Positions 4,081 through 48,507 of a DNA stretch of 64,000 bases are shown here, in pieces (the first letter of the stretch is position 1; each line of letters starts with the position of its first letter). The translations under genes were made by a program, and so were the position numbers. Source of the DNA: Bdellovibrionales bacterium (GTDB taxonomy: Bacteria; Bdellovibrionota; Bdellovibrionia; Bdellovibrionales; JAUICD01); assembly GCA_965262715.1 (NCBI GenBank), contig OZ253553.1, forward strand, positions 2,304,001 through 2,368,000, in the 5' to 3' direction. The notes beneath the pieces were generated by a model. It was not told the DNA's origin. It saw nothing but the letters and a program-made list of their open reading frames with translations, and did no database searches.

Positions 4081-4309
4081 TGTTTGGTAAGTGTGGAAGA
4101 TATCTTGTATAAGCCATTTTTGATAGAAAAACATAACAGGTTCCTGGTAAAAATTGATTTCATACAATAAAACCATTTTTAAGAACAACAAACCAATTGC
4201 TGCAGGAAAAAGCTTCGTAGAAAAGTACAAAAGAGAGAAATAACTGGACAAATGGCCTAAGTAAATATAACACTCTCAAAGAGAGTTTCGTTCTAACTTT
4301 AAGGGTGCT

Positions 4310-5770: not shown

Positions 5771-5781
5771 AAGGAGGGTTT

Positions 5782-6003
5782 ATGGAATTTGAAAGTAATT
5801 TAAGTAAGTTAGAAAAAATTGTGGAAAAGATGGAAGCAGGCAATTTATCTCTTGATGAGTCTCTGGTTGCTTTTGAAGAAGGGATTCGTCTTTCTAAAGA
5901 TTGCAATAAAAGATTGAATCAAGCTGAGGAAAAAGTGAAAAAGCTTCTTAGTGTGGATAAAGATGGTAAAGCGGAAACCACAAATTTTGAATCCATCGAA
6001 TGA
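5782..6003 (+). CDS. xseB: Exodeoxyribonuclease VII small subunit
   Basis: FE..L..LEKIVEKME.G.LSLDESL..FEEGI.L motif, AGGAGG RBS, follows xseA. Confidence 0.97.
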   Translation: MEFESNLSKLEKIVEKMEAGNLSLDESLVAFEEGIRLSKDCNKRLNQAEEKVKKLLSVDKDGKAETTNFESIE

Positions 6004-6965
6004 CATCTTTTTTTGAAGTTGCTTTTCAAAAAGAACTGGATCTTCTCGATCGTTTTTTACAAAGTTGGATCGAAAATTACAGAAAAAACGTTCCGCCTGA
6101 AAATAAACAATTAGTAGAGGCTCTTAAGCATGCCCTTGTTGGAGGGAAAAGATTCCGGCCTTTACTTGCCCTCTTAATAGCAAAAGCCTTCAAGCAAGAT
6201 ATGAAATGTGTTTTGCCTTATGCTTGTTCAATAGAGTTTCTACACTCTTATTCTTTGATTCATGATGATCTGCCAGCAATGGACAATGCAGAAAAAAGAC
6301 GTGGTCGCCTTTCCCTTCATAAGGCCTTTAATGAAGGTACTGCTATTTTAACAGGAGATGCCTTATTAACAGAGGCGTTTGAACTTGCTGTTTCTCATAA
6401 GTCTAGGTTTTTACAAGACACCTCATCTCTTATTTGTCTTTTAGTGCAAGCAGTTGGTGGGAGAGGAATGATAAGTGGTCAAATGCTAGACCTTCAGGCC
6501 GTAGACCTTCAGGCCGTAGACCTTCAGGCCGTAGACCCTCAGGCCGTAGACCCTCAGGCCGTAGACCCTCAGGCCGTAGACCCTCAGGTCGTAGACCTAC
6601 AAGTTTCAAATAATAAATCAATTAACTTAGAACGTCTTTATGATTTGAAAACAGGAGGATTGATTTGCGCTTCTATTATAGGGGCAGCCATGATTTCTGG
6701 AGTTAAAGAACTAGACCTCTTAAAGTTGAAAAGCTTTGCACACAAATTGGGAATTGCATTTCAAATTGCAGATGACCTAGAGGATTTCAATGAGCAAAGC
6801 GATAAAAGTGCTAACGTCATCAACTGCGCACACCAGTGGGGGGTTCAAGTGGCTAAAAAAAAGCTTTATAAGCTTTTTAGCCAATCTTTAGAGATTTTAA
6901 AATCTATCGAAAATACAAAGGGCCTTCAAATGTTAATGCGGTTGCATTTTGAAAAGCAACTTTGA
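6000..6965 (+). CDS. ispA: Polyprenyl (farnesyl/geranylgeranyl) diphosphate synthase with in-frame tandem-repeat insertion
   Basis: GGKRFRP, LIHDDLPAMD..RRG, GQMLDL, FQIADDLED motifs and the xseB-ispA gene order. Confidence 0.93.
   Translation: MTSFFEVAFQKELDLLDRFLQSWIENYRKNVPPENKQLVEALKHALVGGKRFRPLLALLIAKAFKQDMKCVLPYACSIEFLHSYSLIHDDLPAMDNAEKRRGRLSLHKAFNEGTAILTGDALLTEAFELAVSHKSRFLQDTSSLICLLVQAVGGRGMISGQMLDLQAVDLQAVDLQAVDPQAVDPQAVDPQAVDPQVVDLQVSNNKSINLERLYDLKTGGLICASIIGAAMISGVKELDLLKLKSFAHKLGIAFQIADDLEDFNEQSDKSANVINCAHQWGVQVAKKKLYKLFSQSLEILKSIENTKGLQMLMRLHFEKQL
6487..6603 (+). repeat. 15-bp coding VNTR (tagacc[t/c]tcagg[c/t]cg), 7 full copies plus a partial
   Basis: Units start at 6487, 6502, 6517, 6532, 6547, 6562, 6577 and a partial at 6592. 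They encode DLQAV/DPQAV. Confidence 0.97.
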
Positions 6966-6997
6966 TGTTGTTTGATGAGCTGATATCTAAGCATGCC

Positions 6998-7543
6998 TTA
7001 CTTTATTTCTAAGGGTTTATTGGTTAAAAGGTCTTTGGCCTTTTCTAATTTCAATAAAAATATCTTTTTTGTCATACCCCCTGTAAAGCCGCCTAATTTC
7101 ACTCGAATTTTATTTATTTTTGCTTGTTTTTGAGGAGTGTATTTTGAAATCACTCTATGGCAAGGGATAATAATAGGAATAGGATTTTTTCCGTTTGCAT
7201 TTCCTATTGCTCTATAACCTTTAGGACATTCTGCCATCTTTGCTTGTTGCTGGTAGGATATTGTATTTCCATAAGGAATTTGTCGCAAAGCGCGCCAAGC
7301 TTTTTGTTGAAAATCAGTTCCTTGATAAAGGTCTAAAGGTATAGAAAAGACCCTTCTTTTGCCTTGAAAGTATTCATTAAGCTGTCTTTTCGCTTTTTGT
7401 AAGATAGGGCATCTTGTATTTTTCTTAAGAGATGTTATAAAATCAGGAAGCTTGTTCCAAAAAACATGTTTTAATCCTTTATTTGAAGCAATAAGAGTTA
7501 ATTTACCAAGTGGACTTTGAAAGGTTATATAATAATCTTGCAT
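6998..7543 (-). CDS. ogt: Methylated-DNA--protein-cysteine S-methyltransferase
   Basis: GTDFQ..W..L.QIPYG.T.SY and NPIPIIIPCHRVI active-site motif. Confidence 0.95.
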   Translation of the reverse strand: MQDYYITFQSPLGKLTLIASNKGLKHVFWNKLPDFITSLKKNTRCPILQKAKRQLNEYFQGKRRVFSIPLDLYQGTDFQQKAWRALRQIPYGNTISYQQQAKMAECPKGYRAIGNANGKNPIPIIIPCHRVISKYTPQKQAKINKIRVKLGGFTGGMTKKIFLLKLEKAKDLLTNKPLEIK

Positions 7544-7760
7544 ACCGTTATATTCTTATAGTTTAATCAAGTTTTTATGAGGCCGGTTTATATAAAATTT
7601 TAAAAAAGAAACAAACTATTGATATCTTTGTTATTGTATTTAATATATTGAATAATTCTTATAAGTAGGTATATTACTGAGCAAGCCGTGTCAATAGCTT
7701 CTTTAAATGGTAGGTAAATTATTAAGAGTTATAGAATTAAAAAAATTTTGAGAGAGATAC

Positions 7761-8300
7761 ATGAGACAAAAATCTAGATGCCTATTTTTCAATCAACCAA
7801 TATTTTATGGTTTTGTTTTTTTATTCATTTTTTCTGGCTGTGGATTGCCTACAGACTCTATTAAAAATATCGATAAAAATATAGAGGAGATCAAAGAAAG
7901 TGTGACAGATAGTGGCGTACAAATCGTAATTAAAGATGCTGATTTTGATCAACTGCCTTTAGAAGAATTAAAAGAACTTATTGAAAAGCTCAACAGTATA
8001 TTGAATAGTATATTGAATAGTATATTTAATAATGATAAAGATGCAGTTGATGAGCCTTTGGAGCCCGGCATTGATAAACAACCTGAAGAAGGTGTAGCTG
8101 ATGAGATAGCAGATTTTGAGGTAGATCCTGAAGATCTGTTTAATGATAGTGATAGTGAAAGCATAAAAGTTGTATTAGAACAAATTAGGACAGATCTTAT
8201 AGAAGCTCTTAAAGAAATGGAACCAGAAGATGACAGGAGGGATGATATAGAAGGATTTATTGAACAAATCACACAGATTTTAGGAGACGAGGGTCAATAG
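7761..8300 (+). CDS. Acidic hypothetical lipoprotein
   Basis: Hydrophobic N-terminus with FSGC lipobox, D/E-rich, short 12-bp LNSI tandem repeat. Confidence 0.65.
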   Translation: MRQKSRCLFFNQPIFYGFVFLFIFSGCGLPTDSIKNIDKNIEEIKESVTDSGVQIVIKDADFDQLPLEELKELIEKLNSILNSILNSIFNNDKDAVDEPLEPGIDKQPEEGVADEIADFEVDPEDLFNDSDSESIKVVLEQIRTDLIEALKEMEPEDDRRDDIEGFIEQITQILGDEGQ

Positions 8301-8397
8301 CCTTGGGTTAAAATAGTTAGTTACTTCTCTAAATAAAGGTTCATTAAAAGATATTAAATCATTAAAGGGTTAACTTAGGTGGGAATAAGGTATAAAT

Positions 8398-9153
8398 ATG
8401 CATTGTAACAAAGTAAATAGGTATTTAGTGAGAAAAACTTTATTTTTTAACATTCTTTTTGTCTTATGTTCTTCATCTGCTATGAGTTTTTCTTCTTTAG
8501 AAAATAGTGTTAAAATTGAATCAAACAGTAATGGATGCATAGATGTAAATTATGAAGAAATTCTAACACGAATAGAAAACTTTGCCTCTTATCGAGAAAT
8601 TGATGATCACATTGTATGGCCTAATGTGCGGTCATGGCTATCTGCTGCTGTTGAGAGCGTGTTGCCAGGAGTTTTGGAGCGGTTTTTAGATATAAAGCCT
8701 TTAGATATGACAATGTCTGAGGAAAGGGAGTGTGAAAGTTCACAAGGAAATGAATCAGGACGTTCTAGAGCATGCAAAGTATGGATGGCTTTTTCGCCTT
8801 TAGAATTGCCTAGGAGCTTACATGCGTTCTATCCTAAAATACCTTTAATGTGTAGTATACGAGAAGATGGAGAAGGCCATGTCATTCATAGATGTGATCA
8901 GGTAGAGGGTTTAACTTATGCTGTTCAGTCGTTTTCTTCTTTGTTGCAGATATCGAAACACGATTGTGGTGTAAAGTCATTTTTTAGAATTGTTTTTAAT
9001 CTTCATAGGGATCATGTGGAGGCTATTTATGAATCAATTATTGATTATTACGAGTGGCCTACGGTTGTTTTAAGAATTATGCAAAGAGCTGATAAAACCG
9101 AACTGTTTTCACTTTATTTTCAAAATCTTTATAACCAGCTTCTTTTGTTATAA
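8398..9153 (+). CDS. Hypothetical secreted protein
   Basis: 251-aa ORF with signal-peptide-like N-terminus, no recognised motif. Confidence 0.6.
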   Translation: MHCNKVNRYLVRKTLFFNILFVLCSSSAMSFSSLENSVKIESNSNGCIDVNYEEILTRIENFASYREIDDHIVWPNVRSWLSAAVESVLPGVLERFLDIKPLDMTMSEERECESSQGNESGRSRACKVWMAFSPLELPRSLHAFYPKIPLMCSIREDGEGHVIHRCDQVEGLTYAVQSFSSLLQISKHDCGVKSFFRIVFNLHRDHVEAIYESIIDYYEWPTVVLRIMQRADKTELFSLYFQNLYNQLLLL

Positions 9154-9353
9154 TGAGCTTCAGTATTTGCAAGCTATTTTGATGAGAGTATTAAAAGCTA
9201 AGCTCATAATAGTTATAGAGTGGGTCACTTTTAAACTTAATAATATTCTTTTGGCAAGATGCTTTTAATTGCTAACGAATCAGATAAAAGGCAGAAATTG
9301 ACAATAAGCATCATAATAAAAAGAGATTGTTTTGTTAGACTACATAACTGATC

Positions 9354-9962
9354 TTGACTTTAACAAGTAAAACACTGTTTATTCGAGGCATGAGTGTGAA
9401 ATGGACAAAAGAGCAAATAAAAAGGGTAGCTAAAGGTGTTTTTAGTGATTTAAAAGCTAATAATATTGTCACTTTTAAGGCTCCAGAAGACTCAGTGATG
9501 ACAAAGGTTGTTAGTTATGTTATAGCAGATCAAAATAAGGATAAAGAGATAGACAAAGAGGCGCGAAGAATGGTAGAAGACCTAGAAAGCAAGGCCTCGG
9601 ACACCATTGATAGGCATAAGTTATTTCAGTTGGTGAAGAAAAAGCTTATGGCTGAGAAAAACAGACCTGACAGTTGGAAATCAAAGGGTGGAGTTATTGA
9701 AGAGCTACCCATACATTTTGCTCATCTTATAATTGATGCTGTTTGGAAAGATGATTTGGTAGATTATACTGATGATAATCGGGCTTTGAAGGTAGCAAAG
9801 CAATCAGTTGCAAAGTTTTTAAATGAAGTAGAAGTTTTAAATGAGCAGGTGAGACATAAAATACAATCAATTAAAAGAACCATCCCCGAAGGAAGTGATG
9901 AGTGGAAGGCTTTATATGATAGATTTTACAAAGAGGAATTACGCCGTCGAGGATTTTTATAG
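9354..9962 (+). CDS. DUF507-like protein (start probably ATG 9390)
   Basis: Two similar helical halves. The C-terminal I.EGS.EW..LY...Y.EEL.RRG pattern is typical of DUF507. Confidence 0.75.
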   Translation: MTLTSKTLFIRGMSVKWTKEQIKRVAKGVFSDLKANNIVTFKAPEDSVMTKVVSYVIADQNKDKEIDKEARRMVEDLESKASDTIDRHKLFQLVKKKLMAEKNRPDSWKSKGGVIEELPIHFAHLIIDAVWKDDLVDYTDDNRALKVAKQSVAKFLNEVEVLNEQVRHKIQSIKRTIPEGSDEWKALYDRFYKEELRRRGFL

Positions 9963-9972
9963 AGTTGAGTTA

Positions 9973-10130
9973 GGTTAAGAATTTTCCTTAACATGGTGTT
10001 AGCTGATAAGAAGAGTCTTGCTACTCAAAGTAAACGGATTTTTGAGACAGCCAGCATTTTTTTGACGGTGTTAACCGTCAGGTTGGCTGTCCAAAAACAG
10101 CTAGGAGCTGGTTTATTTTGAGTGAGACAG
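9973..10130 (+). ncRNA. Dispersed multi-stem element (structured RNA or ssDNA/MITE), version A; repeated in each array unit
   Basis: Nested stems actcaaagtaaac/gtttattttgagt, gacagcca/tggctgtc, tgacgg/ccgtca and cagct/agctg. Homologous to 32710-32857, 34974-35142 and 39639-39789. Confidence 0.6.
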
Positions 10131-10626
10131 AGAGTGGAAGGCTTTATATGATAGATTTTACAAAGAGGAATTACGCCGTCGAGGATTTTTATAGAGTTGA
10201 GTTAGGTTAAGAATTTTCCTTAACATGGTGTTAGCTGATAAGAAGAGTCTTGCTACTCAAAGTAAACGGATTTTTGAGACAGCCAGCATTTTTTTGACGG
10301 TGTTAACCGTCAGGTTGGCTGTCCAAAAACAGCTAGGAGCTGGTTTATTTTGAGTGAGACAGAGAGTGGAAGGCTTTATATGATAGATTTTACAAAGAGG
10401 AATTACGCCGTCGAGGATTTTTATAGAGTTGAGTTAGGTTAAGAATTTTCCTTAACATGGTGTTAGCTGATAAGAAGAGTCTTGCTACTCAAAGTAAACG
10501 GATTTTTGAGACAGCCAGCATTTTTTTGACGGTGTTAACCGTCAGGTTGGCTGTCCAAAAACAGCTAGGAGCTGGTTTATTTTGAGTGAGACAGAGAAAT
10601 GGCTTAACACATGAGGAGGGGGTAAT

Positions 10627-10767
10627 ATGATTGAATTTTTAAAAGTTTTTGCAAAGGATGTTTTTTGTGCGATTTTCGAAAAACGTCCTGAAGATGAAAT
10701 TCGTGAGAATATAAAAGACATTATTCACGAAGTGCTAGACGAGAGAGAAGATAGTGATTTTGATTAA
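10627..10767 (+). CDS. Small acidic ORF (46 aa, MIEFLKVFAKDVFCAIFEKRPEDEIRENIKDIIHEVLDEREDSDFD) in the array insert
   Basis: Strong RBS (gaggagggggt) before ATG 10627; translated by hand. Confidence 0.55.
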   Translation: MIEFLKVFAKDVFCAIFEKRPEDEIRENIKDIIHEVLDEREDSDFD

Positions 10768-10912
10768 ACTTATTTTTCTTTGTTTATCAATTGCGATAAT
10801 TATTGTATTTTTTCCTATCGCGATTTTAATTTCATTAGTAAATTTCTTGAGGTGGAAGGCTTTATATGATAGATTTTACAAAGAGGAATTACGCCGTCGA
10901 GGATTTTTATAG
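10754..10912 (+). CDS. Small hydrophobic chimeric ORF (52 aa) ending in the DUF507 C-terminal peptide
   Basis: GTG start overlapping the previous ORF. About 32 hydrophobic residues read in frame into WKALYDRFYKEELRRRGFL of repeat copy 4. Confidence 0.45.
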   Translation: MILIKLIFLCLSIAIIIVFFPIAILISLVNFLRWKALYDRFYKEELRRRGFL

Positions 10913-11126
10913 AGTTGAGTTAGGTTAAGAGTTTTCCTTAACATGGTGTTAGCTGATAAGAAGAGTCTTGCTACTCAAAGTAAACGGATTTTTGAGACAG
11001 CCAGCATTTTTTTGACGGTGTTAACCGTCAGGTTGGCTGTCCAAAAACAGCTAGGAGCTGGTTTATTTTGAGTGAGACAATGGATTGTTTTTTAGAAAAA
11101 CAATGGAAAAAATCTTTGGAGGCAAT

Positions 11127-22286: not shown

Positions 22287-22586
22287 CTAAGAATAGTTAT
22301 AAATTTCTGTGAATGGATCTGAAACTTCTTCACCTTCTGAATAAATAGTTTCAGGATCGATGTCTATACAATCTGACTCAGAAAAGCATCCACTGCTATC
22401 CCATGCAAGGGTTCCTCCCATAACTGTGCATTTATTCATAAATTCATCGATTTGAGAGATTTTTTGAAATATTCCACCATTACTGATTAAAGGATTTACA
22501 TCATATAACTTAATTTTTCCATCATCAAAGTAAACATAGACTTTAAAGTCCTCTCTCGGCTTAACTTGAACGACTGTTTTTAGCAT
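22287..22586 (-). CDS. DUF2442-family protein (putative antitoxin)
   Basis: V..VKP..DF...V.FDDG..K.YD...GTLAW....DIDPETIY pattern, paired with DUF4160. Confidence 0.85.
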   Translation of the reverse strand: MLKTVVQVKPREDFKVYVYFDDGKIKLYDVNPLISNGGIFQKISQIDEFMNKCTVMGGTLAWDSSGCFSESDCIDIDPETIYSEGEEVSDPFTEIYNYS

Positions 22587-22598
22587 ATTAAGACCTTT

Positions 22599-22859
22599 TT
22601 ACTTTAGGGGATCAATTTTCTTAATCATACCATTTTTCTGAGCTGATTTCCAATTTTGAATAAGTTCTTGTTTATGTATTTCACACCAAGCCAGTACTAA
22701 TTTAAGTTGTTTTGTGGGGAGCAGTCCTTTTATAACAGCGGCTTGTTCGATAGATATAATAGCCTTAGCACTTTTATGCTCAGCATGAAAGTGCATTGGC
22801 AGATGATCTGCCCAGTGCATATATATTTTGATTCCAAAGAATTGACTTATAAGCGGCAT
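22599..22859 (-). CDS. DUF4160-family protein (putative toxin)
   Basis: MP.IS.FFGI.I.M...DH.P.HFHA...G.LP.KQLKLVLAW..IH..EL..NW pattern. Start reassigned to ATG 22859. Confidence 0.88.
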   Translation of the reverse strand: MPLISQFFGIKIYMHWADHLPMHFHAEHKSAKAIISIEQAAVIKGLLPTKQLKLVLAWCEIHKQELIQNWKSAQKNGMIKKIDPLK

Positions 22860-22978
22860 AATTAAGCTCATTTTATATGGTTCATTATAATCTTTATTAT
22901 TTGTAAATTTAACATAAAAAAGGGACTTGTTGCACAAATACTTAATGGCCAATGAGTATATTAAGCTTAGATGGAGAT

Positions 22979-25900
22979 TTAAACAGAGCGGCGATATGCA
23001 CCGCCGACTTCATACAAGGCTTTAGACATTTGCCCTAAGGAACAATATCTAGAAGCTTGCATAAGTGCCTCAAAAATATTTTTTCCAGATAAAATATGTT
23101 CCTTTAAATATACTAGTTCTTTTTTAGCTTGTTTTTGATGTTTTTGTTGATAAAGCTCAAGATGTTTTAATTGTTTATCTTTTTCTTGTTTGCTTGATCT
23201 TGAAAGACCTTCTTCATTGATATCAGGGACATCATCTTCTTCAGAAATATAAGTGTTTACACCTATAATAGGTAGCTTGCCTGAATGTTTTAAATGCTCA
23301 TAATGAAGAGATTCATCTTGAATTTTTCCTCTTTGGTAGCCATGTTCTATAGCTGGTAAGACACCGCCTCTTTCGCTAATGCGAATAAACTCGCTTAATA
23401 TAGCCTCTTCTACTAAATCTGTGAGCTGTTCTAGCCAGTAACTACCTTGAGTAGAGTTTTCGCATTTTGTCATTCCAAACTCACGATTGATAATCATCTG
23501 AATGGCCATAGCTCTTCTTACAGACTCTTTAGTGGGTGTTGTAATGGCTTCATCATAAGAATTGGTATGTAGGCTGTTGCAGTTATCGTAAATAGCAATC
23601 AGGGCTTGTAGAGTCGTTCTTATATCGTTAAAACTCATCTCTTCACTATGTAGAGAACGTCCACTGGTTTGAATATGGTATTTGAGCTTTTGGCTGCGAC
23701 TACTGCCTCCATAAAGATATCTGATGGTAATAGCCCAGATGCGTCTGGCAACGCGCCCAATAACAGCATACTCAGGGTCTAAGCCATTAGAGAAGAAAAG
23801 GGAAAGATGAGGGGCAAATTGGTCAATTTGCATGCCTCTTGATAAATAATATTCTACATAGGTAAAGGCATTTGCTAAAGTAAATGCTGTTTGAGTAATC
23901 GGGTTAGCACCAGCCTCAGCAATATGATACCCAGAAATACTGACAGAATAAAAGTGACGCACTTTATTTAAAATAAAGTATTCTTGAATATCTCCCATCA
24001 TTTTCAGTGCAAAATCTGTTGAAAAAATACAAGTATTTTGGGCTTGTTCTTCTTTCAAAATATCTGCTTGAACTGTTCCACGGACAGAAGAGAAAGTTTT
24101 AGCTTTGATATCTTCAATTTCTTTTTTTGTTAAATTTCGTTTTAATTCTTTTTCTCTTTTTTCAAGTTGTTGATCGATAGCTGTGTTCATAAAAAAAGCT
24201 AAAATAATAGGAGCAGGTCCATTAATAGTCATGCTCACGCTTGTAGAAGGATCACAAAGATCAAAGCCAGAATAGAGAGTTTTCATATTGTCTAATGTGC
24301 ATATACTCACGCCGCATTCTCCTATACGGCTATAAATATCAGGTCTCAAATCAGGGTCTTCTCCGTAAAGAGTCACGCTATCAAAAGCTGTGGAAAGCCT
24401 TTTGGCTTTTGTGTTTTTACAAAGATAGTGAAATCTCTTATTTGTTTTTTCAGGAGTTCCTTCACCTGAAAACTGTCTTTGAGGGTCTTCATCTTGACGT
24501 TTTAGAGTCCATATTCCTGCTGTGTAAGGGAACTCTCCTGGCACATTTTCAAGTTTTAAGAACTTGAGTTTTTCTGACATATCTTTAAAACGAGGAAAGA
24601 CCACGCGTCTGATCATTGTTCCACTTAAAGAGGGTTGCTTCAATGAATAAGATTTGGTTTTACCCATAACAGAATAAGGAATGTTATCCTGTTGATAGGT
24701 TTTTTGTTTATCATTCCATGATTTTAATAACTGATAGTCATCATCTAATTTTTCTATAAGGTCTTTTATTTTAGGTTCTATTTCTGTTTTAAGATGGGGG
24801 AGAAGTTTTAGAGTTTCTTCTAAAGCTCCTAGTTGGTAAGCTAAATCTGCTTTTTGCTGTACTTCTTCTTTATACTTGCGGACAGTTTGGGCTACTTGTG
24901 TTAAATAAGCCTTTTTTTCTGTAGGTATAATTTGTTGATGCTTTGAGTGAGAGGAAATGTTTTTGGAACATGGTATATTTATTTTTTTTAAGAGGGCAAA
25001 AAATAATTTATTCATTCCTTCGTCGTTAAAACAAGAGGCTTGTGTTAAAAAAACAGGTAAGTTGCTGTCTTCTTCTTGAAAAAGCTTTCTAGAACGCTTA
25101 TATTGCTTTCTTACATCTCTTAGTGCATCTTTAGAGCCTTGGCGGTCAGCTTTGTTGATAGCAATGAAATCTGCAAAGTCAATCATGTCAATCTTTTCAA
25201 GCTGTGAGCTTGCTCCAAACTCAGAGGTCATTACATAAAGACTGAGATCAGAAACTTCTGTGATGGCCATATTGCCTTGTCCAATTCCAGATGTTTCTAC
25301 AATGAGCAAGTCAAAACCTTGATTTTTCATTTGGTTGACAATGAGCCTTAAATTATCAGAGATTTCTTTGCCTGAATTGCGAGAAGCTAAAGATCTCATA
25401 AAAAAGTGGGGATAAGAAAGAGCATTCATTCTAATGCGATCTCCTAAGAGGGCTCCGCCAGTTTTCTTTTTAGTAGGATCTACACAAATAATGCCTACTT
25501 TAATATTGTCGATATTTCTTGCCATACGGAAGAGTAATTCATCAACAAGGGAAGATTTCCCAGCCCCACCTGTTCCTGTTACTCCTAATACAAGAGGACA
25601 TTTTTTATAAGTAGCATAAGGTAAATGAGGTAATTTAAGTGCTTCTGTATTTTTATTCTCAAGTTCACTTATTTTAAGCCCTAGATCTCTGTCAGCTAGA
25701 AGAATTGTGTCTGCTAATTTTGTGTCTTGGGATTTGCTTTTTTGATAGGCAGTGCATACATCAAAGTCAGACGCTTTTACAATTTCTTGGATCATGCCTT
25801 CTAGTCCAAGGCGTTTTCCATCTTCTGGTCGAAAGATGCGAGAGATGCCATAAGCTTCTAACTCTTTTTTCTCGTTAGGTGTGATGAGGCCTCCACCTCC

Positions 25901-26173
25901 GCCAAATATTTTGACGTAGGTAGCTCCATTTTGATCTAAGAGATCTCTGGTATATTTGAAATAGGCGATATGACCACCCTGATAATTACTTATACATATT
26001 GTTTGTGCTGCTTCTTGCAAAGCTGTGCGCACTACATCTTTTACAGAGCGGTTATGTCCTAGATGAATGACTTCACATCCTGCATCTTGCAACATTCTTC
26101 TGATGATGTTGATGCTCACATCATGTCCATCAAATAAACTTGCAGCAGTGACAATACGTATAGGATTTTTCAT
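22979..26173 (-). CDS. icmF: Fused isobutyryl-CoA mutase / MeaB-like GTPase
   Basis: N-terminal B12-binding SLFDGHD, GTGGAGKSS GTPase, mutase motifs RLSTAFDSVTLYG and GTVQADILKE. Confidence 0.95.
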   Translation of the reverse strand: MKNPIRIVTAASLFDGHDVSINIIRRMLQDAGCEVIHLGHNRSVKDVVRTALQEAAQTICISNYQGGHIAYFKYTRDLLDQNGATYVKIFGGGGGLITPNEKKELEAYGISRIFRPEDGKRLGLEGMIQEIVKASDFDVCTAYQKSKSQDTKLADTILLADRDLGLKISELENKNTEALKLPHLPYATYKKCPLVLGVTGTGGAGKSSLVDELLFRMARNIDNIKVGIICVDPTKKKTGGALLGDRIRMNALSYPHFFMRSLASRNSGKEISDNLRLIVNQMKNQGFDLLIVETSGIGQGNMAITEVSDLSLYVMTSEFGASSQLEKIDMIDFADFIAINKADRQGSKDALRDVRKQYKRSRKLFQEEDSNLPVFLTQASCFNDEGMNKLFFALLKKINIPCSKNISSHSKHQQIIPTEKKAYLTQVAQTVRKYKEEVQQKADLAYQLGALEETLKLLPHLKTEIEPKIKDLIEKLDDDYQLLKSWNDKQKTYQQDNIPYSVMGKTKSYSLKQPSLSGTMIRRVVFPRFKDMSEKLKFLKLENVPGEFPYTAGIWTLKRQDEDPQRQFSGEGTPEKTNKRFHYLCKNTKAKRLSTAFDSVTLYGEDPDLRPDIYSRIGECGVSICTLDNMKTLYSGFDLCDPSTSVSMTINGPAPIILAFFMNTAIDQQLEKREKELKRNLTKKEIEDIKAKTFSSVRGTVQADILKEEQAQNTCIFSTDFALKMMGDIQEYFILNKVRHFYSVSISGYHIAEAGANPITQTAFTLANAFTYVEYYLSRGMQIDQFAPHLSLFFSNGLDPEYAVIGRVARRIWAITIRYLYGGSSRSQKLKYHIQTSGRSLHSEEMSFNDIRTTLQALIAIYDNCNSLHTNSYDEAITTPTKESVRRAMAIQMIINREFGMTKCENSTQGSYWLEQLTDLVEEAILSEFIRISERGGVLPAIEHGYQRGKIQDESLHYEHLKHSGKLPIIGVNTYISEEDDVPDINEEGLSRSSKQEKDKQLKHLELYQQKHQKQAKKELVYLKEHILSGKNIFEALMQASRYCSLGQMSKALYEVGGAYRRSV

Positions 26174-26448
26174 AGTTTATATCAGATATTTCTTTAAATA
26201 TCTGAGCCTTTGTGGGGTTGTGTTGTTATGGTTATATGTCATATAAAAAACATAAGTCATTATAGCATGTGAAAAATAGTATTTCAATTTCAGTTCAGGT
26301 TATATATACTGTGTAAATTTTTCAAAAACATGTAATAATTTCTCAACTATTTTATATTTAAGTTTATGGCAGGAATATCAGTAGATATTTTTTCAAATCT
26401 ATGTTAGTTAGTTAAAGGCTTGATTAACTATAGGAAGGAGATTTAATT

Positions 26449-27126
26449 ATGAATTTATTTAAGCATTTATTTATTCTATCCATATTATGTTTGATCACAA
26501 GCACTTTCAGTATATCGGCTTTAGCTCAGATGTCTCAGGACGAGTTAAACAGGTTCTTTCTTAATGCAAGCCGCTCTGGTGATGTAGAAAGTGTCAGAGC
26601 AGCACTTGAAGGAGGAGCAGATGTAAATGTGGCTGATGAAGAAAATGGCTGCACAGCTTTAATGTATGCGACTAGTCTTCATGAGGAATGGCGTGAAGAT
26701 AGTAGTGGTCGTAGGGCTGACAGTCCCTTCATATGTTCTCGAGGTCAGTATAATCATGAGGTATTGGAGCTATTGTTTGATAAGGGATTTGACTTAAATA
26801 AATTAAGCCAACACAGAATAGCTGAGTTTTTACTTAAAGCAAGCGAAGTTGGAGATGTACAGAATGTTGTAAAAGCACTTGAAGCAGAAGCAGATGTAAA
26901 TGGAGGTGGTCGCTACCCACCTTTACTTCTAGCAAGTGAAAATGGGCATGAAGATATCGTAAGAACATTAATTATAGCTGGAGCTGATATAAATCAAATA
27001 GTGAACAGCATAGATGGGCAAAAAACAGCTTTAAATATTGCAATAGAGAGAGGTCATGAAGGTGTTGAACGTGTATTGCGTGATGCAGGAGCTCTTACTG
27101 TAGAGTTTATGGCGATGAAAAGATGA
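26449..27126 (+). CDS. Secreted ankyrin-repeat protein, copy 1
   Basis: Signal peptide and ankyrin motifs GADVN..GCTALMYA, PPLLLASENGHEDIV..L...GADIN. Confidence 0.9.
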   Translation: MNLFKHLFILSILCLITSTFSISALAQMSQDELNRFFLNASRSGDVESVRAALEGGADVNVADEENGCTALMYATSLHEEWREDSSGRRADSPFICSRGQYNHEVLELLFDKGFDLNKLSQHRIAEFLLKASEVGDVQNVVKALEAEADVNGGGRYPPLLLASENGHEDIVRTLIIAGADINQIVNSIDGQKTALNIAIERGHEGVERVLRDAGALTVEFMAMKR

Positions 27127-27129
27127 AAA

Positions 27130-27181
27130 GGTTCAACAATAAGTTAACTCCTCTAAAAGTCAACTTAAGGTGTCATGAACC
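27130..27181 (-). mobile_element. 52-bp mini-element derived from an IS1595 left end (duplicated at 30308-30359)
   Basis: Bounded by ggttca...tgaacc. The core is the reverse complement of agttgacttttagaggagttaacttattgtt at 15159-15189. Confidence 0.7.
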
Positions 27182-27313
27182 TATATTATAAACCAAAGGT
27201 TATTAGTTCAATCTCTTTATTTTCAAGTTAGTAATTAAAAACACCTTTTGAAGTTTTTCTGCCGAGAAAACCAGCTTCAACATATTTAGTTAGAAGAGGA
27301 CTTGGTCTGTATT

Positions 27314-29309
27314 CCTGACTTCAGCGTTTTTGTTTAAAGAGGAAGTTTTTTTCAAGTTTTTTCATTAAATTTCGTTATTGAGAGCGGGTTTATTTTGATT
27401 TGAGGCTGAAACAGCTATTTATTTTTATTTTGTGTGGCCCTAAGCCCTTGACAGATTTTGAGAGTTACTTCATAGTTATTTTATGTATATCAAAGAGACT
27501 AAAAAAGCCAATGGTAAGATATCCATACGGATCATGAAGTCTATCCGTAGAGGTGAGAAAGTGACTCATCATACAGTAAGTAGTCTTGGTTGCTGTTTTG
27601 AGAATCAATTGGATTTTTATAAAAAGAATGCAAAGACCTTATTAGATCGTTTAGAAAAAGAAGAAGCAGAAAAAATGTCAATACTTCTTCCAGGAATGAA
27701 AGAATATTGTGACAGCATAGAACCGGTTTCTAAACAACCAAGGTCAAGAAAAAAGAGTGTTAAAGTTAAAAAGAAAGCATCTTCTCATTTTAAAATCATA
27801 CTTTCATCAGAAGCAAAAGAGCGATGTCGAGTGATTAGTGGCATACAGAGTGTTTTTGGAACAATATATAATCAATTAGATTTTAATAATCTTATAAAAG
27901 GTAAGAGTCAAAAAACGAAGCAATATAATGAGTTATTAAAGCTGTGTGTTTTATCTCGGATAGCTCAACCAGAGTCTAAGCGAAAGACAGTAGATACATT
28001 AGGATTAGATTATAACAAAGAGATTTCTTTAGATCAGGTTTATCGGATGATGGATAAACTTCATACTCGTATACCTGAATTAAAAAAGCAAATTTCAGAT
28101 CATACATTAAGTCTTTTCAATCAAGAGGTGGATGTTTTATTTTTTGATGTAACGACATTATACTTTGAAAGTTTGACAAAAGATGATCTGAAGGACTTTG
28201 GATTTAGTAAAGATTGTAAGTTCAAAGAAGTTCAAGTGGTTTTAGCTTTAATAACAAATTCAGAAGGTCATCCATTAATTTATCAGTTATTTCCTGGAAA
28301 TACGAGTGAAGGCAGCACTCTTATTCATGTGATTCAAGATTTAAAGAAACACTTTAGTGTTAAGAGAGTTATCTTAGTAGCGGATCGAGCTATGTTTACA
28401 GATAAGAATTTAAGTTTTATGGAGAAAGAGAATATCCAATATATAGTTTCAGCCAAGCTCAAGCAATTTTCAAGAGATAAGAAAGCAGAGATTTTATCAG
28501 CTTCTAAGAAAGGTGAAGATGTCAGTATATTCAATGAATCACAAAGAATGAAAGAGTTAGATCATAATGGTCGCAGATTATTAGTGAGTTATTCTATCAT
28601 GAGAGCTAAGAAGGATAAAGCAGATAGAGATAGACTCATTGATCGATTAATGAAGAAAGCAATAGATGATAAGATTTCCACTAAGTCTCTTATTTCTAAT
28701 TATGGAACTAAGAAGTACATAAAGATAGAAGATAGCAAAGCGACTATCAATAGGAATAAGATTAAAGAGGATTCTCACTGGGATGGTCTCTACGGAGTTA
28801 TAACTAATATTAAAGATCAAAGTATGCAGAGTTTATTTACTCGCTATAGAGGCCTCTGGAAGATAGAAGAGGCATTTAGAGTGAATAAACATACATTGAG
28901 AATGAGACCGATATATCATTGGAAGAAAAGAAGGATAGAGTCTCATATAGCGATATGTTTTTTAGCCTATGCTTTATCGTATCATATCAAGCACAGACTT
29001 AAGACAAAAAATATTAATTTAAGTATTCAAAAGATTAAAGAGATCTTAAAGAGGGATCAGTATTCAATTATAGAAGACCCAAAGACTCATCAATTATATC
29101 AATTAGCATCTTCATCAACAAAAACTTTAGAAGCTATATACAAGATTTTTGAGCTTAAAAGAAAGACAGGACTTACAAAAATAACAGAAAACCCGCAAAC
29201 CCTTAATACATAAGCCTTTTAAGTAACCTCGATGTCAAATGTGTGGCCCCAAGAAAATCGTAAGTGCTTGATTATAAAGAACTTTGCCTTTCAAAATGCT
29301 GAAGTCAGG
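27314..29309 (+). mobile_element. IS1634-family insertion sequence (1996 bp)
   Basis: TIR CCTGACTTCAGC / GCTGAAGTCAGG enclosing an intact transposase. Confidence 0.92.
27483..29213 (+). CDS. IS1634-family DDE transposase
   Basis: FFDVTTLYFES, GFSKD.K..EVQVVLAL, FPGNTSE, VADRAM, Y..LWKIEEAFR..K..L..RPIYHW. Confidence 0.92.
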   Translation: MYIKETKKANGKISIRIMKSIRRGEKVTHHTVSSLGCCFENQLDFYKKNAKTLLDRLEKEEAEKMSILLPGMKEYCDSIEPVSKQPRSRKKSVKVKKKASSHFKIILSSEAKERCRVISGIQSVFGTIYNQLDFNNLIKGKSQKTKQYNELLKLCVLSRIAQPESKRKTVDTLGLDYNKEISLDQVYRMMDKLHTRIPELKKQISDHTLSLFNQEVDVLFFDVTTLYFESLTKDDLKDFGFSKDCKFKEVQVVLALITNSEGHPLIYQLFPGNTSEGSTLIHVIQDLKKHFSVKRVILVADRAMFTDKNLSFMEKENIQYIVSAKLKQFSRDKKAEILSASKKGEDVSIFNESQRMKELDHNGRRLLVSYSIMRAKKDKADRDRLIDRLMKKAIDDKISTKSLISNYGTKKYIKIEDSKATINRNKIKEDSHWDGLYGVITNIKDQSMQSLFTRYRGLWKIEEAFRVNKHTLRMRPIYHWKKRRIESHIAICFLAYALSYHIKHRLKTKNINLSIQKIKEILKRDQYSIIEDPKTHQLYQLASSSTKTLEAIYKIFELKRKTGLTKITENPQTLNT

Positions 29310-30491
29310 AAATAAACTTGCAGCAGTGACAATACGTATAGGATTTTTCATAGTTTATATCAGATATTTCTTTAAATATCTGAGCCTTTGTGGGGTTGTG
29401 TTGTTATGGTTATATGTCATATAAAAAACATAAGTCATTATAGCATGTGAAAAATAGTATTTCAATTTCAGTTCAGGTTATATATACTGTGTAAATTTTT
29501 CAAAAACATGTAATAATTTCTCAACTATTTTATATTTAAGTTTATGGCAGGAATATCAGTAGATATTTTTTCAAATCTATGTTAGTTAGTTAAAGGCTTG
29601 ATTAACTATAGGAAGGAGATTTAATTATGAATTTATTTAAGCATTTATTTATTCTATCCATATTATGTTTGATCACAAGCACTTTCAGTATATCGGCTTT
29701 AGCTCAGATGTCTCAGGACGAGTTAAACAGGTTCTTTCTTAATGCAAGCCGCTCTGGTGATGTAGAAAGTGTCAGAGCAGCACTTGAAGGAGGAGCAGAT
29801 GTAAATGTGGCTGATGAAGAAAATGGCTGCACAGCTTTAATGTATGCGACTAGTCTTCATGAGGAATGGCGTGAAGATAGTAGTGGTCGTAGGGCTGACA
29901 GTCCCTTCATATGTTCTCGAGGTCAGTATAATCATGAGGTATTGGAGCTATTGTTTGATAAGGGATTTGACTTAAATAAATTAAGCCAACACAGAATAGC
30001 TGAGTTTTTACTTAAAGCAAGCGAAGTTGGAGATGTACAGAATGTTGTAAAAGCACTTGAAGCAGAAGCAGATGTAAATGGAGGTGGTCGCTACCCACCT
30101 TTACTTCTAGCAAGTGAAAATGGGCATGAAGATATCGTAAGAACATTAATTATAGCTGGAGCTGATATAAATCAAATAGTGAACAGCATAGATGGGCAAA
30201 AAACAGCTTTAAATATTGCAATAGAGAGAGGTCATGAAGGTGTTGAACGTGTATTGCGTGATGCAGGAGCTCTTACTGTAGAGTTTATGGCGATGAAAAG
30301 ATGAAAAGGTTCAACAATAAGTTAACTCCTCTAAAAGTCAACTTAAGGTGTCATGAACCTATATTATAAACCAAAGGTTATTAGTTCAATCTCTTTATTT
30401 TCAAGTTAGTAATTAAAAACACCTTTTGAAGTTTTTCTGCCGAGAAAACCAGCTTCAACATATTTAGTTAGAAGAGGACTTGGTCTGTATT
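29310..30491 (+). repeat. 1182-bp direct repeat, right copy
   Basis: Begins at the first base after the right TIR; matches 26132-27313. Confidence 0.95.
29627..30304 (+). CDS. Secreted ankyrin-repeat protein, copy 2
   Basis: Translation identical to 26449-27126. Confidence 0.9.
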   Translation: MNLFKHLFILSILCLITSTFSISALAQMSQDELNRFFLNASRSGDVESVRAALEGGADVNVADEENGCTALMYATSLHEEWREDSSGRRADSPFICSRGQYNHEVLELLFDKGFDLNKLSQHRIAEFLLKASEVGDVQNVVKALEAEADVNGGGRYPPLLLASENGHEDIVRTLIIAGADINQIVNSIDGQKTALNIAIERGHEGVERVLRDAGALTVEFMAMKR

Positions 30492-31269
30492 TAGAATCTC
30501 CAATATCTTCATGTAAGACTTTCATAATGGCTAAACATACATCAAGCCCAATAAAGTCAGCAAGCTCTAAGGGTCCCATAGGTTGATTTGTTCCTAGCTT
30601 CATAGCTGTATCAATATCTTTTGCAGAGGCGATACCTTCATCTAAAGCAAAAAAAGCTTCGTTAATCATGGGCATTAAAATACGATTGACGATAAAGCCG
30701 GGAGTGTCTTTTAAAGAAGCTACAAAAACCTTCTGCATTTTTTCAGCTAATTTTTTAGCTTGTAAAAAAGTGTCATCTGAAGTTTGTAGTCCTCTGATGC
30801 CTTCTACCAAACGCATAACAGGAACAGGGTTCATAAAATGTAAGCCCACTACTTTGTCTGGGCGTTTTGTAGCTGCTGCTAAGCGGGTTATTGAAATAGA
30901 AGATGTATTAGAACATAAGATCACATCTGAGGAAGTTATTTTATCTAATTGAGTGAAAAGTTGAGTTTTTGCATTAACATCTTCTATGATAGCTTCTATG
31001 ATTATTTGGCATTGGTCTATTTTGGTTGTGTTATTAGATAATACTAACCATGTGATGCGATTTGTAATTTGATTTTTCTGATCTTTTGTGATTTTTTGTT
31101 TTTCAATCATTCTTGTTAATTGTTTGTCTATTTTGAGTTTAGCTTTCTTTAAAGCTTCTAAAGAGGCATCAAAACAAATCACAGGTAGGCCACTTGTTGC
31201 TGCCATCTGAGTTATACCTTGACCCATTTGACCAGCACCAATAATTCCAATAGATTGAACGTCTTCCAA
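30406..31269 (-). CDS. hbd: 3-hydroxybutyryl-CoA dehydrogenase
   Basis: GAGQMGQGI, SNTSSISIT, GLHFMNPVPVM, PGFIVNRIL, PMGPLELADFIGLD. Confidence 0.95.
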   Translation of the reverse strand: MEDVQSIGIIGAGQMGQGITQMAATSGLPVICFDASLEALKKAKLKIDKQLTRMIEKQKITKDQKNQITNRITWLVLSNNTTKIDQCQIIIEAIIEDVNAKTQLFTQLDKITSSDVILCSNTSSISITRLAAATKRPDKVVGLHFMNPVPVMRLVEGIRGLQTSDDTFLQAKKLAEKMQKVFVASLKDTPGFIVNRILMPMINEAFFALDEGIASAKDIDTAMKLGTNQPMGPLELADFIGLDVCLAIMKVLHEDIGDSKYRPSPLLTKYVEAGFLGRKTSKGVFNY

Positions 31270-33081: not shown

Positions 33082-33615
33082 TCAGTTTTCACATTCAAAT
33101 ATCTGTAAAATTTGATCTAGCAAACGAATACCTCTTCTTTTTGTTTCTAAAATAGATTTTGTAAAATGTTTATTATAAGACTCATACTTTAGTTTTTCTT
33201 TTGCATTTAATATCTTGGATTCAAAGGTCTTTTTACAGGCCTTACTTGTTTGTGGTTTTAGATGTCCTAAAATATCTAAAAGAAACCCTTCTAGACAAGG
33301 TTTAGCAATCCAAACATCTTCATTTATTTTATTTTCATCTTCTGGCTTGATCCTATCTCCATTTAAAAGGATGTAGGATTTATCAATACTTAGACAGGTT
33401 TCTTTTTTGCTAACAGTCTTTTGCATACTTGATAGGCTACCGCCATCTTCAGATGTTATTTGAACGAACTTTTTATTTCCTGCATCTCCTTTTAGATACA
33501 AGGTTTTTATATACTTAAGAAATGCAACTTCTGTTTTGCCTTCACAGTGAATAAGGATGGACTTCTTAGTGATTTTTTTGTTTTTCTTAGGACTTTTCAT
33601 AAATTCAAATATCAA
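33082..33615 (-). CDS. RloB-like protein
   Basis: ILIHCEGKTE..FL and PCLEGFLL motifs; overlaps the stop of the upstream AAA ATPase. Confidence 0.75.
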   Translation of the reverse strand: MIFEFMKSPKKNKKITKKSILIHCEGKTEVAFLKYIKTLYLKGDAGNKKFVQITSEDGGSLSSMQKTVSKKETCLSIDKSYILLNGDRIKPEDENKINEDVWIAKPCLEGFLLDILGHLKPQTSKACKKTFESKILNAKEKLKYESYNKHFTKSILETKRRGIRLLDQILQIFECEN

Positions 33616-34787
33616 TAATCAATATCAGGAAAACCGCCGTAAACCCCTGACATATAATTCTTAAATAGATTATCTTTATCCTTTATATCTTCAAATTGAT
33701 CTAATCTATAGGTTGAAGATTTATTGTCCTTAGTCTTTTTTACTAAATGTACCTGATATTTGTTTAAATCCATTAAGATGGGACTCATGTGGGATGTAAA
33801 TAAAATTTGCCCTTGATTCTTTTGTTCTGTAAATAAGTGTAAGATTCTAGAGACGGCTTGAGGATGAATTCCTAATTCCAATTCGTCAATCACTATTAAT
33901 AATTTATTTTTAAGACTTTTGAGAATTGGATATAGTTTTGTAAAAAGGTTTTGAGTGCCATGTGATTCTGCAAATAGAGGTAGTGTGAAAGGGTTGTTTT
34001 GTTGATCAGGACGTGACATAAATGGTATTGTAATCATTATAGACTTACTGTGTTTATCAAGTGCTTGCCCTTTTTCGAGTGTTAAAGTGTGTTCTCCTAA
34101 GTCTAAGTTTTTTAAAATGTCCTTCATTTGATCTAGTAGGTCATCATCTTTTTGATACTTTCTTGAAAATTTGTTTAACTCTAAGATTAGATCGGGATTG
34201 GGTTGCTCCAAAGACATTTGGTGTTCCCAAAAATTTTTAATTTTTTGCATTTCTGGTTCATTGATTTGAGCAAAAGTAGAAATGATAGAAGCATTTGCGC
34301 GAGTTAAGTGGATGTTTTTTTTAAGTAGAGGTTCTGTTTTTTTGTCTTCAAAGTTTGTCTCTATAAAATTTTGTTTTTTTCTCTTAAAAATCATCACATT
34401 TTCTTTAGGAGATATTTTTTGAAGTTTTTCCAATAGAACTCCCTGTCTATTTAATTCAAAAGAATAATCATAATATAAATTATTAATAAAAAAGCCTACA
34501 TTGAATGAGCTTTTATCTTCGTTGGACATATATGGTTGATAAATTGGGGACCCCGGGTTTTTATCGTGAAAAGAATTAACAATGAAATATCTTATAAAAT
34601 CAAGAGCTTTTATTACATTTGTTTTACCGGAAGCGTTTGGGCCTAAAATAGCTGCTATTTTAGAAAGTCTTGTGTCAGCACATTTGGTGAACGCTCCTGT
34701 TTTTGGAGCATTTTCATCTACTTCAAAAGAGATCATGCCCTCATCTTTAAAAGAGAGAAAGTTTTTCCAACTAAAATATTTAATCAT
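33612..34787 (-). CDS. ABC-type/AAA_21 ATPase (RloA/AbiEii-like)
   Basis: NFLSFKD, Walker A GPNASGKTN, ESHGT, Walker B VIDELELGIHP, QILFTSH, Y..G.YGG.P tail. Confidence 0.85.
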   Translation of the reverse strand: MIKYFSWKNFLSFKDEGMISFEVDENAPKTGAFTKCADTRLSKIAAILGPNASGKTNVIKALDFIRYFIVNSFHDKNPGSPIYQPYMSNEDKSSFNVGFFINNLYYDYSFELNRQGVLLEKLQKISPKENVMIFKRKKQNFIETNFEDKKTEPLLKKNIHLTRANASIISTFAQINEPEMQKIKNFWEHQMSLEQPNPDLILELNKFSRKYQKDDDLLDQMKDILKNLDLGEHTLTLEKGQALDKHSKSIMITIPFMSRPDQQNNPFTLPLFAESHGTQNLFTKLYPILKSLKNKLLIVIDELELGIHPQAVSRILHLFTEQKNQGQILFTSHMSPILMDLNKYQVHLVKKTKDNKSSTYRLDQFEDIKDKDNLFKNYMSGVYGGFPDIDY

Positions 34788-34973: not shown

Positions 34974-35142
34974 GGTTAAGGTTTCCTTAACATGATGTAA
35001 AAAAAGAGAAATATCTCCTTACTCAAAATAAACGGATTTTTGAGGTAGTTAGTATTTTCTTGAAGGCGTAAGCCTTCAGGCTAACTGCCCAAAAATGGCC
35101 AGAAGCTCGCCTCAAGAGGCCAGTTTATTTTGAGTGAAACAG
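34974..35142 (+). ncRNA. Dispersed multi-stem element, version B
   Basis: ggttaag..ttccttaacatg, then stems actcaaaataaac/gtttattttgagt, ggtagttag/ctaactgcc, tgaaggc/gccttca; ends gaaacag. Confidence 0.6.
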
Positions 35143-47391: not shown

Positions 47392-48507
47392 CTCTCATTA
47401 TTATAACCCATTACCTAGAAACTGAAACTTATTGATAAGTGCCACTCTTTCGGCCGCCTTCATCTCTCATTATTATAACCCATTACCTAGAAACTGAAAC
47501 TAGTAGCAAGATCTTCATGTGTGGGGTACTAATCCACTCTCATTATTATAACCCATTACCTAGAAACTGAAACAATTCACATAAACCAGAGTTTCTAACA
47601 TCTTCCCTCTCTCATTATTATAACCCATTACCTAGAAACTGAAACTACCTCTCAAGTATCCAGCAACAGCCCCTATACCCTCTCATTATTATAACCCATT
47701 ACCTAGAAACTGAAACGTTTACCTGTATTATGATAATATCCACTATTATAACTCTCATTATTATAACCCATTACCTAGAAACTGAAACGACCTTAGAACA
47801 AAATCACTACCAGATTCAATAGCTCTCATTATTATAACCCATTACCTAGAAACTGAAACCTCTCGAATTGAGCAAATAAGATTGCGTTGTTTACCCTCTC
47901 ATTATTATAACCCATTACCTAGAAACTGAAACAATTCACATAAACCAGATTCTCTGACATCTTCCCTGCCTCTCATTATTATAACCCATTACCTAGAAAC
48001 TGAAACCTAGCCATAGTAAGAAAATCAGGACTGCTTGATTCCTCTCATTATTATAACCCATTACCTAGAAACTGAAACATTCCTACGGTTGGAGCAATAC
48101 CTCTTTTATTTTCCTCTCATTATTATAACCCATTACCTAGAAACTGAAACTAAGTATATATATGTTTGTACAGAACTAATTAAAGCTCTCATTATTATAA
48201 CCCATTACCTAGAAACTGAAACTAAAAATAGACTCTTTTTCATCATCTTCTTTTGCTCTCATTATTATAACCCATTACCTAGAAACTGAAACCTCTCTAT
48301 ATACACCAAGTGCATCTATGTCTTTCCTCTCATTATTATAACCCATTACCTAGAAACTGAAACCAGCCATACTATAAACAAGCTAATACACTTACTCACT
48401 CTCATTATTATAACCCATTACCTAGAAACTGAAACTCTAGATCCGCTCCCGACTAGGGGGTTTTTCTCCCCTCTCATTATTATAACCCATTACCTAGAAA
48501 CTGAAAC
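47392..48507 (-). CRISPR. CRISPR array: 16 identical 37-bp repeats, 15 spacers of 33-37 bp
   Basis: Repeat CTCTCATTATTATAACCCATTACCTAGAAACTGAAAC (crRNA sense GTTTCAGTTTCTAGG... on the minus strand), starting at 47392, 47464, 47537 ... 48471. Confidence 0.99.

Follow-up and report, generated by a model that had tools for sequence, protein, structure and literature searches.

An IS1634-family insertion sequence between two identical 1,182-bp host segments in a Bdellovibrionales genome: a probable kilobase-scale target-site duplication that doubles an ankyrin gene

Within a 64,000-bp stretch of DNA from a Bdellovibrionales bacterium (assembly GCA_965262715.1, contig OZ253553.1, positions 2,304,001 to 2,368,000; hereafter the window), an insertion sequence (IS) of the IS1634 family lies between two long direct copies of host DNA. 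The window is part of one 2.94-Mb contig of the genome, which we call G000. The blocks at 26132..27313 (copy 1) and 29310..30491 (copy 2) are identical over 1,182 bp, with 0 mismatches, and cannot be extended on either side; the last base of copy 1 lies directly before the left inverted repeat of the element (27314), and the first base of copy 2 directly after the right one (29309). Each block holds 42 bp of the start of icmF, a 275-bp divergent intergenic region, a 225-aa ankyrin-repeat open reading frame (ORF) and the 3'-terminal 86 bp of an hbd-like gene. The ankyrin gene (26449..27126, plus strand; Pfam Ank_2, PF12796, E 6e-21) thus recurs unchanged in copy 2 (29627..30304, plus strand), as seen in the sequence comparison and the ORF list. 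Its product has a signal-peptide-like N-terminus, judged by eye, which is the sole basis for calling it secreted.

Both neighbouring genes are full length beside the duplication. To the left is icmF, encoding a fused isobutyryl-CoA mutase/GTPase of 1064 aa (22979..26173, minus strand, start codon at 26173; NF045497, 1656 bits, cut-off 1500), whose first 42 bp fall within copy 1; to the right, profile searches and the ORF list place an hbd-like 3-hydroxyacyl-CoA dehydrogenase gene (287 aa; 30406..31269, minus strand), whose last 86 bp fall within copy 2 and whose product scores 397 bits against PRK05808, below the cut-off of 408. The inner edges of the blocks carry the matching orphan pieces, the 3' 86 bp of hbd in copy 1 (27228..27313, minus strand; ORF list and sequence comparison) and the 5' 42 bp of icmF in copy 2 (29310..29351, minus strand; sequence comparison). 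An earlier note on this DNA had described two matching 1,182-bp blocks that abut the terminal inverted repeats without a gap and leave icmF and hbd intact, and all of this stands.

The element itself (27314..29309, plus strand) is 1,996 bp long. Sequence comparison gives a 12-bp left inverted repeat at 27314..27325 (plus strand) and a 12-bp right one at 29298..29309 (minus strand). Its only ORF (27483..29213, plus strand) encodes a 576-aa DDE transposase that scores 347.5 bits against the NCBIfam profile NF033559, 'IS1634 family transposase' (cut-off 100). All 60 homologues compared share D222, D301 and E462; the YREK site reads Y455-x2-L-x3-E462-x6-K469, with L458 in place of the arginine. 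The IS1634 family is described as having a long spacer in the DDE triad, a YREK motif usually without its arginine, a length of 1,500-2,000 bp and ends of the form C-----YT (PMC2266710). The length, both ends and the triad with its long spacer fit that description, in agreement with the family named in the earlier note. Placement in the IS4 family proper is not supported, with 40.8 bits against NF033592 (cut-off 115), no full YREK and no duplication of ~10 bp. A search of solved structures with the 60-sequence transposase profile gave 0 matches. Out of keeping with the family is the target repeat, which is typically 5-6 bp; the element has one identical second copy in the genome (G000:C1:261182-263177), and the repeats at the two copies are 1,182 and 164 bp. 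IS1549 and IS1634 are themselves listed as long-repeat exceptions inside the family (PMC2266710), and the element is therefore placed among these exceptions rather than outside the family.

Long repeats are the rule among relatives of the element in G000. A tblastn search gave 40 related stretches, and anchoring on the element ends yielded 34 end pairs, belonging to four main transposase types, of which the other three match the window protein at only 33-48%. Flush direct repeats of 38-1,666 bp (median 245) were found at 30 of the 34 pairs; eight exceed 514 bp and five are at least 1 kb long (1,182, 1,340, 1,593, 1,663 and 1,666 bp). Two further pairs, once nested elements are allowed for, have repeats of 327 and 345 bp, bringing the duplications to 32 of 34. 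None of the 30 flush repeats has an IS end at its outer edge. One more element, which the end pattern misses because its right end is short of two terminal bases, lies between repeats of 735-739 bp that are 96.5% identical. The earlier note had proposed a kilobase-staggered target-site duplication and had held that finding only short duplications at other copies would count against it; the 164-bp repeat at the second copy and the repeats of up to 1,666 bp at sister elements do not refute the proposal, which is supported.

The pattern extends to related genomes, sampled here by taking the top-scoring copies across 300 genomes of the order, with more taken from high-copy ones. Flush repeats of 37-3,350 bp are present at 59 of 85 two-ended elements, from 13 related genomes and one isolate plasmid. 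Thirteen of these are longer than 514 bp and five, in three genomes, reach at least 1 kb; the longest complete one measures 3,350 bp at 99.8% identity (L074; G237:C1, locus 2237-10869). With G000 included, the flush repeats number 89, of which 21 are longer than 514 bp and 10 measure at least 1 kb. In both sets the repeat length differs from copy to copy while the repeats stay flush with the ends, the trait of the IS1549/IS1634 type. Only one of the 26 related elements without a flush repeat has a short exact one (8 bp). At several repeat-less copies, reciprocally swapped flanks restore repeats of 26-800 bp, together with one-sided matches of 396 and 1,459 bp. Such swaps (L048-L050 in G269, L081-L082 in G108, L067/L180 in G175) mark recombination between IS copies, with the original pairings still readable through the long repeats. 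Wider flanks were inspected for 18 repeat-less copies: three have 190-303-bp repeats split by nested DNA, 14 have none within ~9 kb, and the remaining one has a candidate 5,887-bp repeat (L238; G112:C2:98918-108060) that is flush at its start and can be followed for 1,371 bp before the contig ends. Outside this set of flanks, a Mycoplasmopsis IS1634 copy (L230:1053-4785, NZ_LR215032.1) has a ~280-bp repeat, with an IS3 element interrupting its left copy, and on the isolate plasmid NZ_CP099557.1 (L192:3984-7080) an element with a 680-bp flush repeat has annotated Crp/Fnr-family genes on both flanks.

The cuts share a signature. At 56 of 60 ends in G000 the IS adjoins a T, which makes A the first base of the repeat; the background is 0.33. 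Over all genomes, A stands at the repeat start at 126 of 136 ends of repeats up to 514 bp, at 38 of 42 ends above 514 bp and at 17 of 20 ends of repeats of at least 1 kb. The repeat lengths form one broad continuum; for a set of 99 lengths, six of which come from flank swaps (two of the six being one-sided), a log-normal (Akaike information criterion, AIC, 1383) and an exponential (1388) both fit far better than a power law (1455). Because the A is found at both cuts at all sizes, no outer IS ends occur and the lengths are continuous, repeats of kilobase length appear to be the upper end of what one and the same reaction produces, in which the transposase apparently chooses both breakpoints. 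Promoters do not appear to be targeted: a -10-like box is close to 20 of 60 cuts in G000, where a matched null gives 24.1 +/- 3.7. Helical phasing of the lengths was considered and rejected: a nominal 11.5-bp peak in G000 alone (p ~0.006, with 26 periods scanned) vanished on pooling (n=60 under 300 bp, jitter p 0.94).

Taken together, the flush ends, the identity of the copies, the A at the cuts, the spread of lengths, the lack of outer IS ends and the ~8-bp repeats of another IS family in the same genome (see below) make it most likely that the two 1,182-bp copies are one target-site duplication. We infer, as the likely course, a single event on one duplex, completed by host copying. The transposase would attach both 3' ends of the element 5' of an A, with one join per strand of a single target duplex. 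The distance between the joins, fixed in ordinary DDE enzymes, would be free, and at this locus would have been 1,182 bp. The two host 3' ends left free could then serve as primers for strand displacement or for replisome-driven synthesis across the DNA between the joins, and with each old strand copied the product would be target-IS-target. The usual cutting of one bent stretch of target by two active sites can be ruled out because the spacing reaches kilobases. Under this scheme a gene would be broken only if both cuts fell within it, and long repeats would double whole genes; recombination between the copies would cleanly remove the IS together with one copy, yet some pairs evidently persist and diverge.

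The alternative that survives best, although we consider it unlikely, is that the ends of the IS join two sister duplexes behind a replication fork at offset sites, again in one event, and that repair of the resulting cross-link gives target-IS-target. The kilobase tail of the lengths has the size of Okazaki fragments, which counts for this scheme, and the lack of helical phasing under 300 bp (n=60) is what would be expected if a tight loop within one duplex were not needed. Binding of the beta clamp by an Acidiphilium IS1634 transposase (PMC4549789) also points this way. Joining of sisters should, however, produce deletions about as often as duplications, whereas 32 of the 34 pairs in G000 are duplications (some deletions could be hidden by selection). 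No replication-orientation bias is seen in G000 either, with 16 leading against 14 lagging insertions, where origin and terminus were placed from a GC skew that has local reversals. A loose-pattern scan found no canonical beta-clamp motif at the C-terminus of the window transposase; this carries little weight, as the Acidiphilium control ORF also showed none.

Less probable again is a history of two steps, in which an insertion with a short duplication was followed by duplication of the adjacent DNA through transposase or recombination, or in which the IS was captured at the join of a forming duplication. Capture of the latter kind has been proposed for IS481 (PMC11708052), and duplications with an IS between their copies, of 60 kb for IS481 (PMC11708052) and 13 kb for IS1634 (PMC1798306), have been read as rearrangements; such a route may cover the very largest cases. 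It predicts many copies with short repeats, however, and at most one of 34 in G000 (4 bp) and one of 85 in the related set (8 bp) were seen. It also predicts IS ends at the outer edges of the repeats, of which there are 0 in 30, and the same preference for A at both cuts at all sizes would be unexpected of host breakpoints.

That the assembler doubled the flank beside a repeated element is very improbable, although the assembly is of metagenome type. Read support was sought in the Logan contigs of runs X2 and X4, which come from one sample and are probably of the source DNA; X1 and X6, with small shares, were not used. All four junction pieces of the window locus (flank-to-repeat, repeat-to-IS, IS-to-repeat and repeat-to-flank) are present in these contigs, and the depth of the repeat (14.4-17.9) is about double that of the two IS junctions (8-9.4) and above that of the flanks (4.5-10). 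The pieces carry 28-30 letters per side, just below the 31-letter bridging threshold, and none spans the whole structure. Several older repeats in G000 carry substitutions (six in 251 bp, seven in 244 bp and 25 in about 739 bp), which is not expected of an assembly error. Nor does another IS family of the same assembly show long repeats: of its nine copies, one was computed and has an 8-bp repeat, and some five others show 8-9 bp by eye. An IS4-like element had also been tried as a short-repeat control and was set aside for this family; its 11-bp 'repeat' is identical at both copies and hence part of the element. Finally, isolate records contain long repeats, of 680 bp in NZ_CP099557.1 and 406 bp in NZ_AP025293.1.

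The same sequence could arise at a single locus if two separate insertions, 1.2 kb apart on different copies of the chromosome, had recombined through the IS, and the flank swaps show that recombination between copies does occur. This is nevertheless the least credible account: one genome would have to contain such insertion pairs, spaced 38-1,666 bp, at 30 unrelated sites, along with a pool of short-repeat insertions that was not observed. The repeats are thus most likely target duplications made by the transposase rather than assembly errors or double insertions.

A number of observations weigh against this conclusion. At a second locus, where a 1,663-bp repeat flanks an element with nine copies, two of four runs have a contig along the IS-free path, and the other two list the IS-to-repeat junction only; this locus is not confirmed by reads, which also speaks for an assembly artefact. 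Because all four runs derive from one sample, the IS-free path is likely a simplification of the graph around a high-copy repeat, and an empty allele is a lesser possibility. The repeats in related genomes were read from assembled sequences. No empty allele of the window locus came to light; in the same-genus genome G001 synteny does not extend upstream of icmF, where a different gene lies, and the ankyrin protein has no close relative among 27 metagenome loci (the best 24-43% identical) and forms a 90% cluster of one member. Two end pairs in G000 did not resolve, one of them with only 4 bp flush (1340305). The lengths, moreover, have been filtered by selection and by loss through recombination, and their spread says little about mechanism.

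The consequences for genes were assessed with our own gene calls for G000 (2,428 genes, 79% coding). Six of the 30 insertions break a predicted gene, in that both cuts fall in the same gene, and one of these has a 1,340-bp repeat; random placement of the same lengths breaks 15.3 +/- 2.4 genes, with a minimum of 7 in 1,000 runs. At least one cut lies inside a gene at 21 of 30 insertions. Cuts are depleted in coding DNA (34 of 60), and selection or targeting therefore contributes to the low breakage. Duplication without disruption of genes, as the earlier note put it, is accordingly a tendency and not a rule.

Six repeats in G000 double seven whole genes: the window ankyrin gene, a 137-aa ankyrin gene together with a 233-aa unknown, a 175-aa ankyrin gene, lgt, and two further unknowns, which makes three ankyrin genes and three unknowns in all. 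The lgt case (L099; G000:C1:1700152-1705290) is a 1,593-bp repeat that carries the whole gene for prolipoprotein diacylglyceryl transferase (PF01790). At G000:C1:1133386-1136806, the element with the shortened right end lies between two 175-aa ankyrin genes that are 96.5% identical in DNA, differ at 5 synonymous and 13 non-synonymous positions, and are both intact. The pair shows directly that duplicates of this kind can survive and diverge. With the window case left out, two of five gene-bearing repeats hold an ankyrin gene, against 5-6% expected (p ~0.03 by hand, which is marginal). The genome has about 109 ankyrin-like ORFs by our own profile, and 142 Pfam matches. Of the five clusters of diverged close ankyrin paralogues, four are tandem arrays whose genes are not separated by any mapped IS1634 end; in a tandem array at about 2,015-2,025 kb of G000:C1 the members are 70-85% identical and no such end lies between them. 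On present evidence, duplication by IS1634 elements is a real but minor route to ankyrin genes. Of the engine for ankyrin expansion envisaged in the earlier note, what stands is the doubling of three ankyrin genes, one pair of which has diverged with both copies intact; that it accounts for the expansion of the ankyrin/TPR families is not supported.

It is likely that each insertion duplicates its target, often with a whole gene, on a larger scale than has been reported for the IS1634 family. A wider generalization, which we offer tentatively and think somewhat more likely to fail than to hold, is that a large branch of the family lacks a fixed strand-transfer spacing, such that each jump would be a programmed duplication of ~30 bp to many kb; the 3.35-kb, the candidate 5.9-kb and the published 13-kb cases would then be the same event, and one-step, reversible gene copying could seed paralogues and feed ankyrin-like secreted families. 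If so, IS-rich bacteria would have a mostly non-disruptive means of copying whole genes with their promoters in one step. For genome evolution, the elements of G000 likely provide a one-step way of duplicating whole genes, with seven genes in six repeats, lgt and three ankyrin genes among them. The shared A at both cuts and the continuous spread of lengths yield concrete predictions, and intact elements with identical copies exist in which to test them. For annotation, IS finders that seek short repeats would label such copies 'repeat-less' and may treat their flanks as assembly errors.

Other features of the window may be noted. Within copy 1 of the block, a sigma-70-like promoter match (11/12, with an extended -10) faces icmF at 26259..26287 on the minus strand; this is a consensus match, and the count of such matches in the region equals the shuffle mean. 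Its counterpart in copy 2 (29437-29465), a candidate on the same grounds, would be directed into the IS, antisense to the transposase. Each block also holds a short palindromic dispersed repeat (27135..27183 and 30313-30361) with ~20 matches in the genome. Elsewhere, a CRISPR-like array at 47392-48507 has 16 copies of a 36-bp repeat at ~72-bp spacing, with two spacers that look near-identical (units at 47537 and 47896). At 9900-11083 a 232-bp unit occurs in three exact tandem copies, with a fourth copy that is 97% identical. A diverged partial match lies near 35007, and tandems of this sort, of 230-235 bp, are found elsewhere in G000. The arms of a 39-bp inverted repeat (97% complementary) lie 22.6 kb apart at 266-304 and 22923-22961, one of them just past the icmF stop. 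Two small gene pairs, at 22287-22952 and 33082-34787, we take to resemble a toxin-antitoxin pair and an AAA ATPase with an RloB-like partner.

Among known systems, the closest are IS1549 and IS1634, whose repeats are given as variable, from 8 to 514 bp, in a 2008 review according to which no mechanistic model for them had yet been put forward (PMC2266710); our literature search found no later one. The window element resembles both in its single-ORF DDE transposase, its short inverted ends starting with C, and the long repeats that vary at each copy (PMC2266710). It belongs to a set that goes beyond that range, with room for whole genes in the 21 of 89 repeats above 514 bp and the 10 of 89 of at least 1 kb. 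Other members of the same family, with similar ends, make short repeats: ISPfe2 makes 6-bp ones (PMC3281130), and single plasmid copies of short-repeat members, among which are elements of Acidiphilium, Mesorhizobium, Geobacillus and Sulfitobacter, have 4-6 bp. In a quick, unfinished tree the short-repeat members group apart (support 88, not firm), and one 5-bp element falls elsewhere on a long branch. The accessible portions of PMC11004492, PMC3053259, PMC9330008 and PMC5371812 contain nothing on repeat length, and no report of routine kilobase target duplications was found in a search to which ISfinder, most subscription papers and supplements were closed. As far as our searches reach, therefore, long variable repeats were already known, while their scale here, their frequency, the shared cut signature and the whole-gene outcome have not been described; what is new is that kilobase repeats are a routine tail of the length distribution.

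Two published duplications invite direct comparison. Mycoplasma mycoides SC PG1 has 13-kb repeats (978,461-991,817 and 993,642-1,006,990) on either side of IS1634-CE, which were lost on passage in one strain (PMC1798306). As at the window locus, an IS1634 element stands between two long direct copies of host DNA; the PG1 arrangement differs in that genes are truncated between the copies and in its published reading, that of an IS-flanked tandem duplication rather than a target duplication, a comparison made here by description only (PMC1798306). The earlier note had given the long repeats of this type as tens to a few hundred bp, which agrees with the 8-514 bp of the review (PMC2266710) but falls well short of these 13 kb (PMC1798306). 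The second case is a 60-kb Dup-IS481-Dup structure in Pseudomonas fluorescens SBW25, from which the IS and one copy were lost together (PMC11708052). There too a new IS copy lies between two copies of the duplicated block, but it was a single event, of another family, explained by the IS entering a break at REP repeats (PMC11708052), whereas in the elements described here a long duplication is the normal state of almost every copy.

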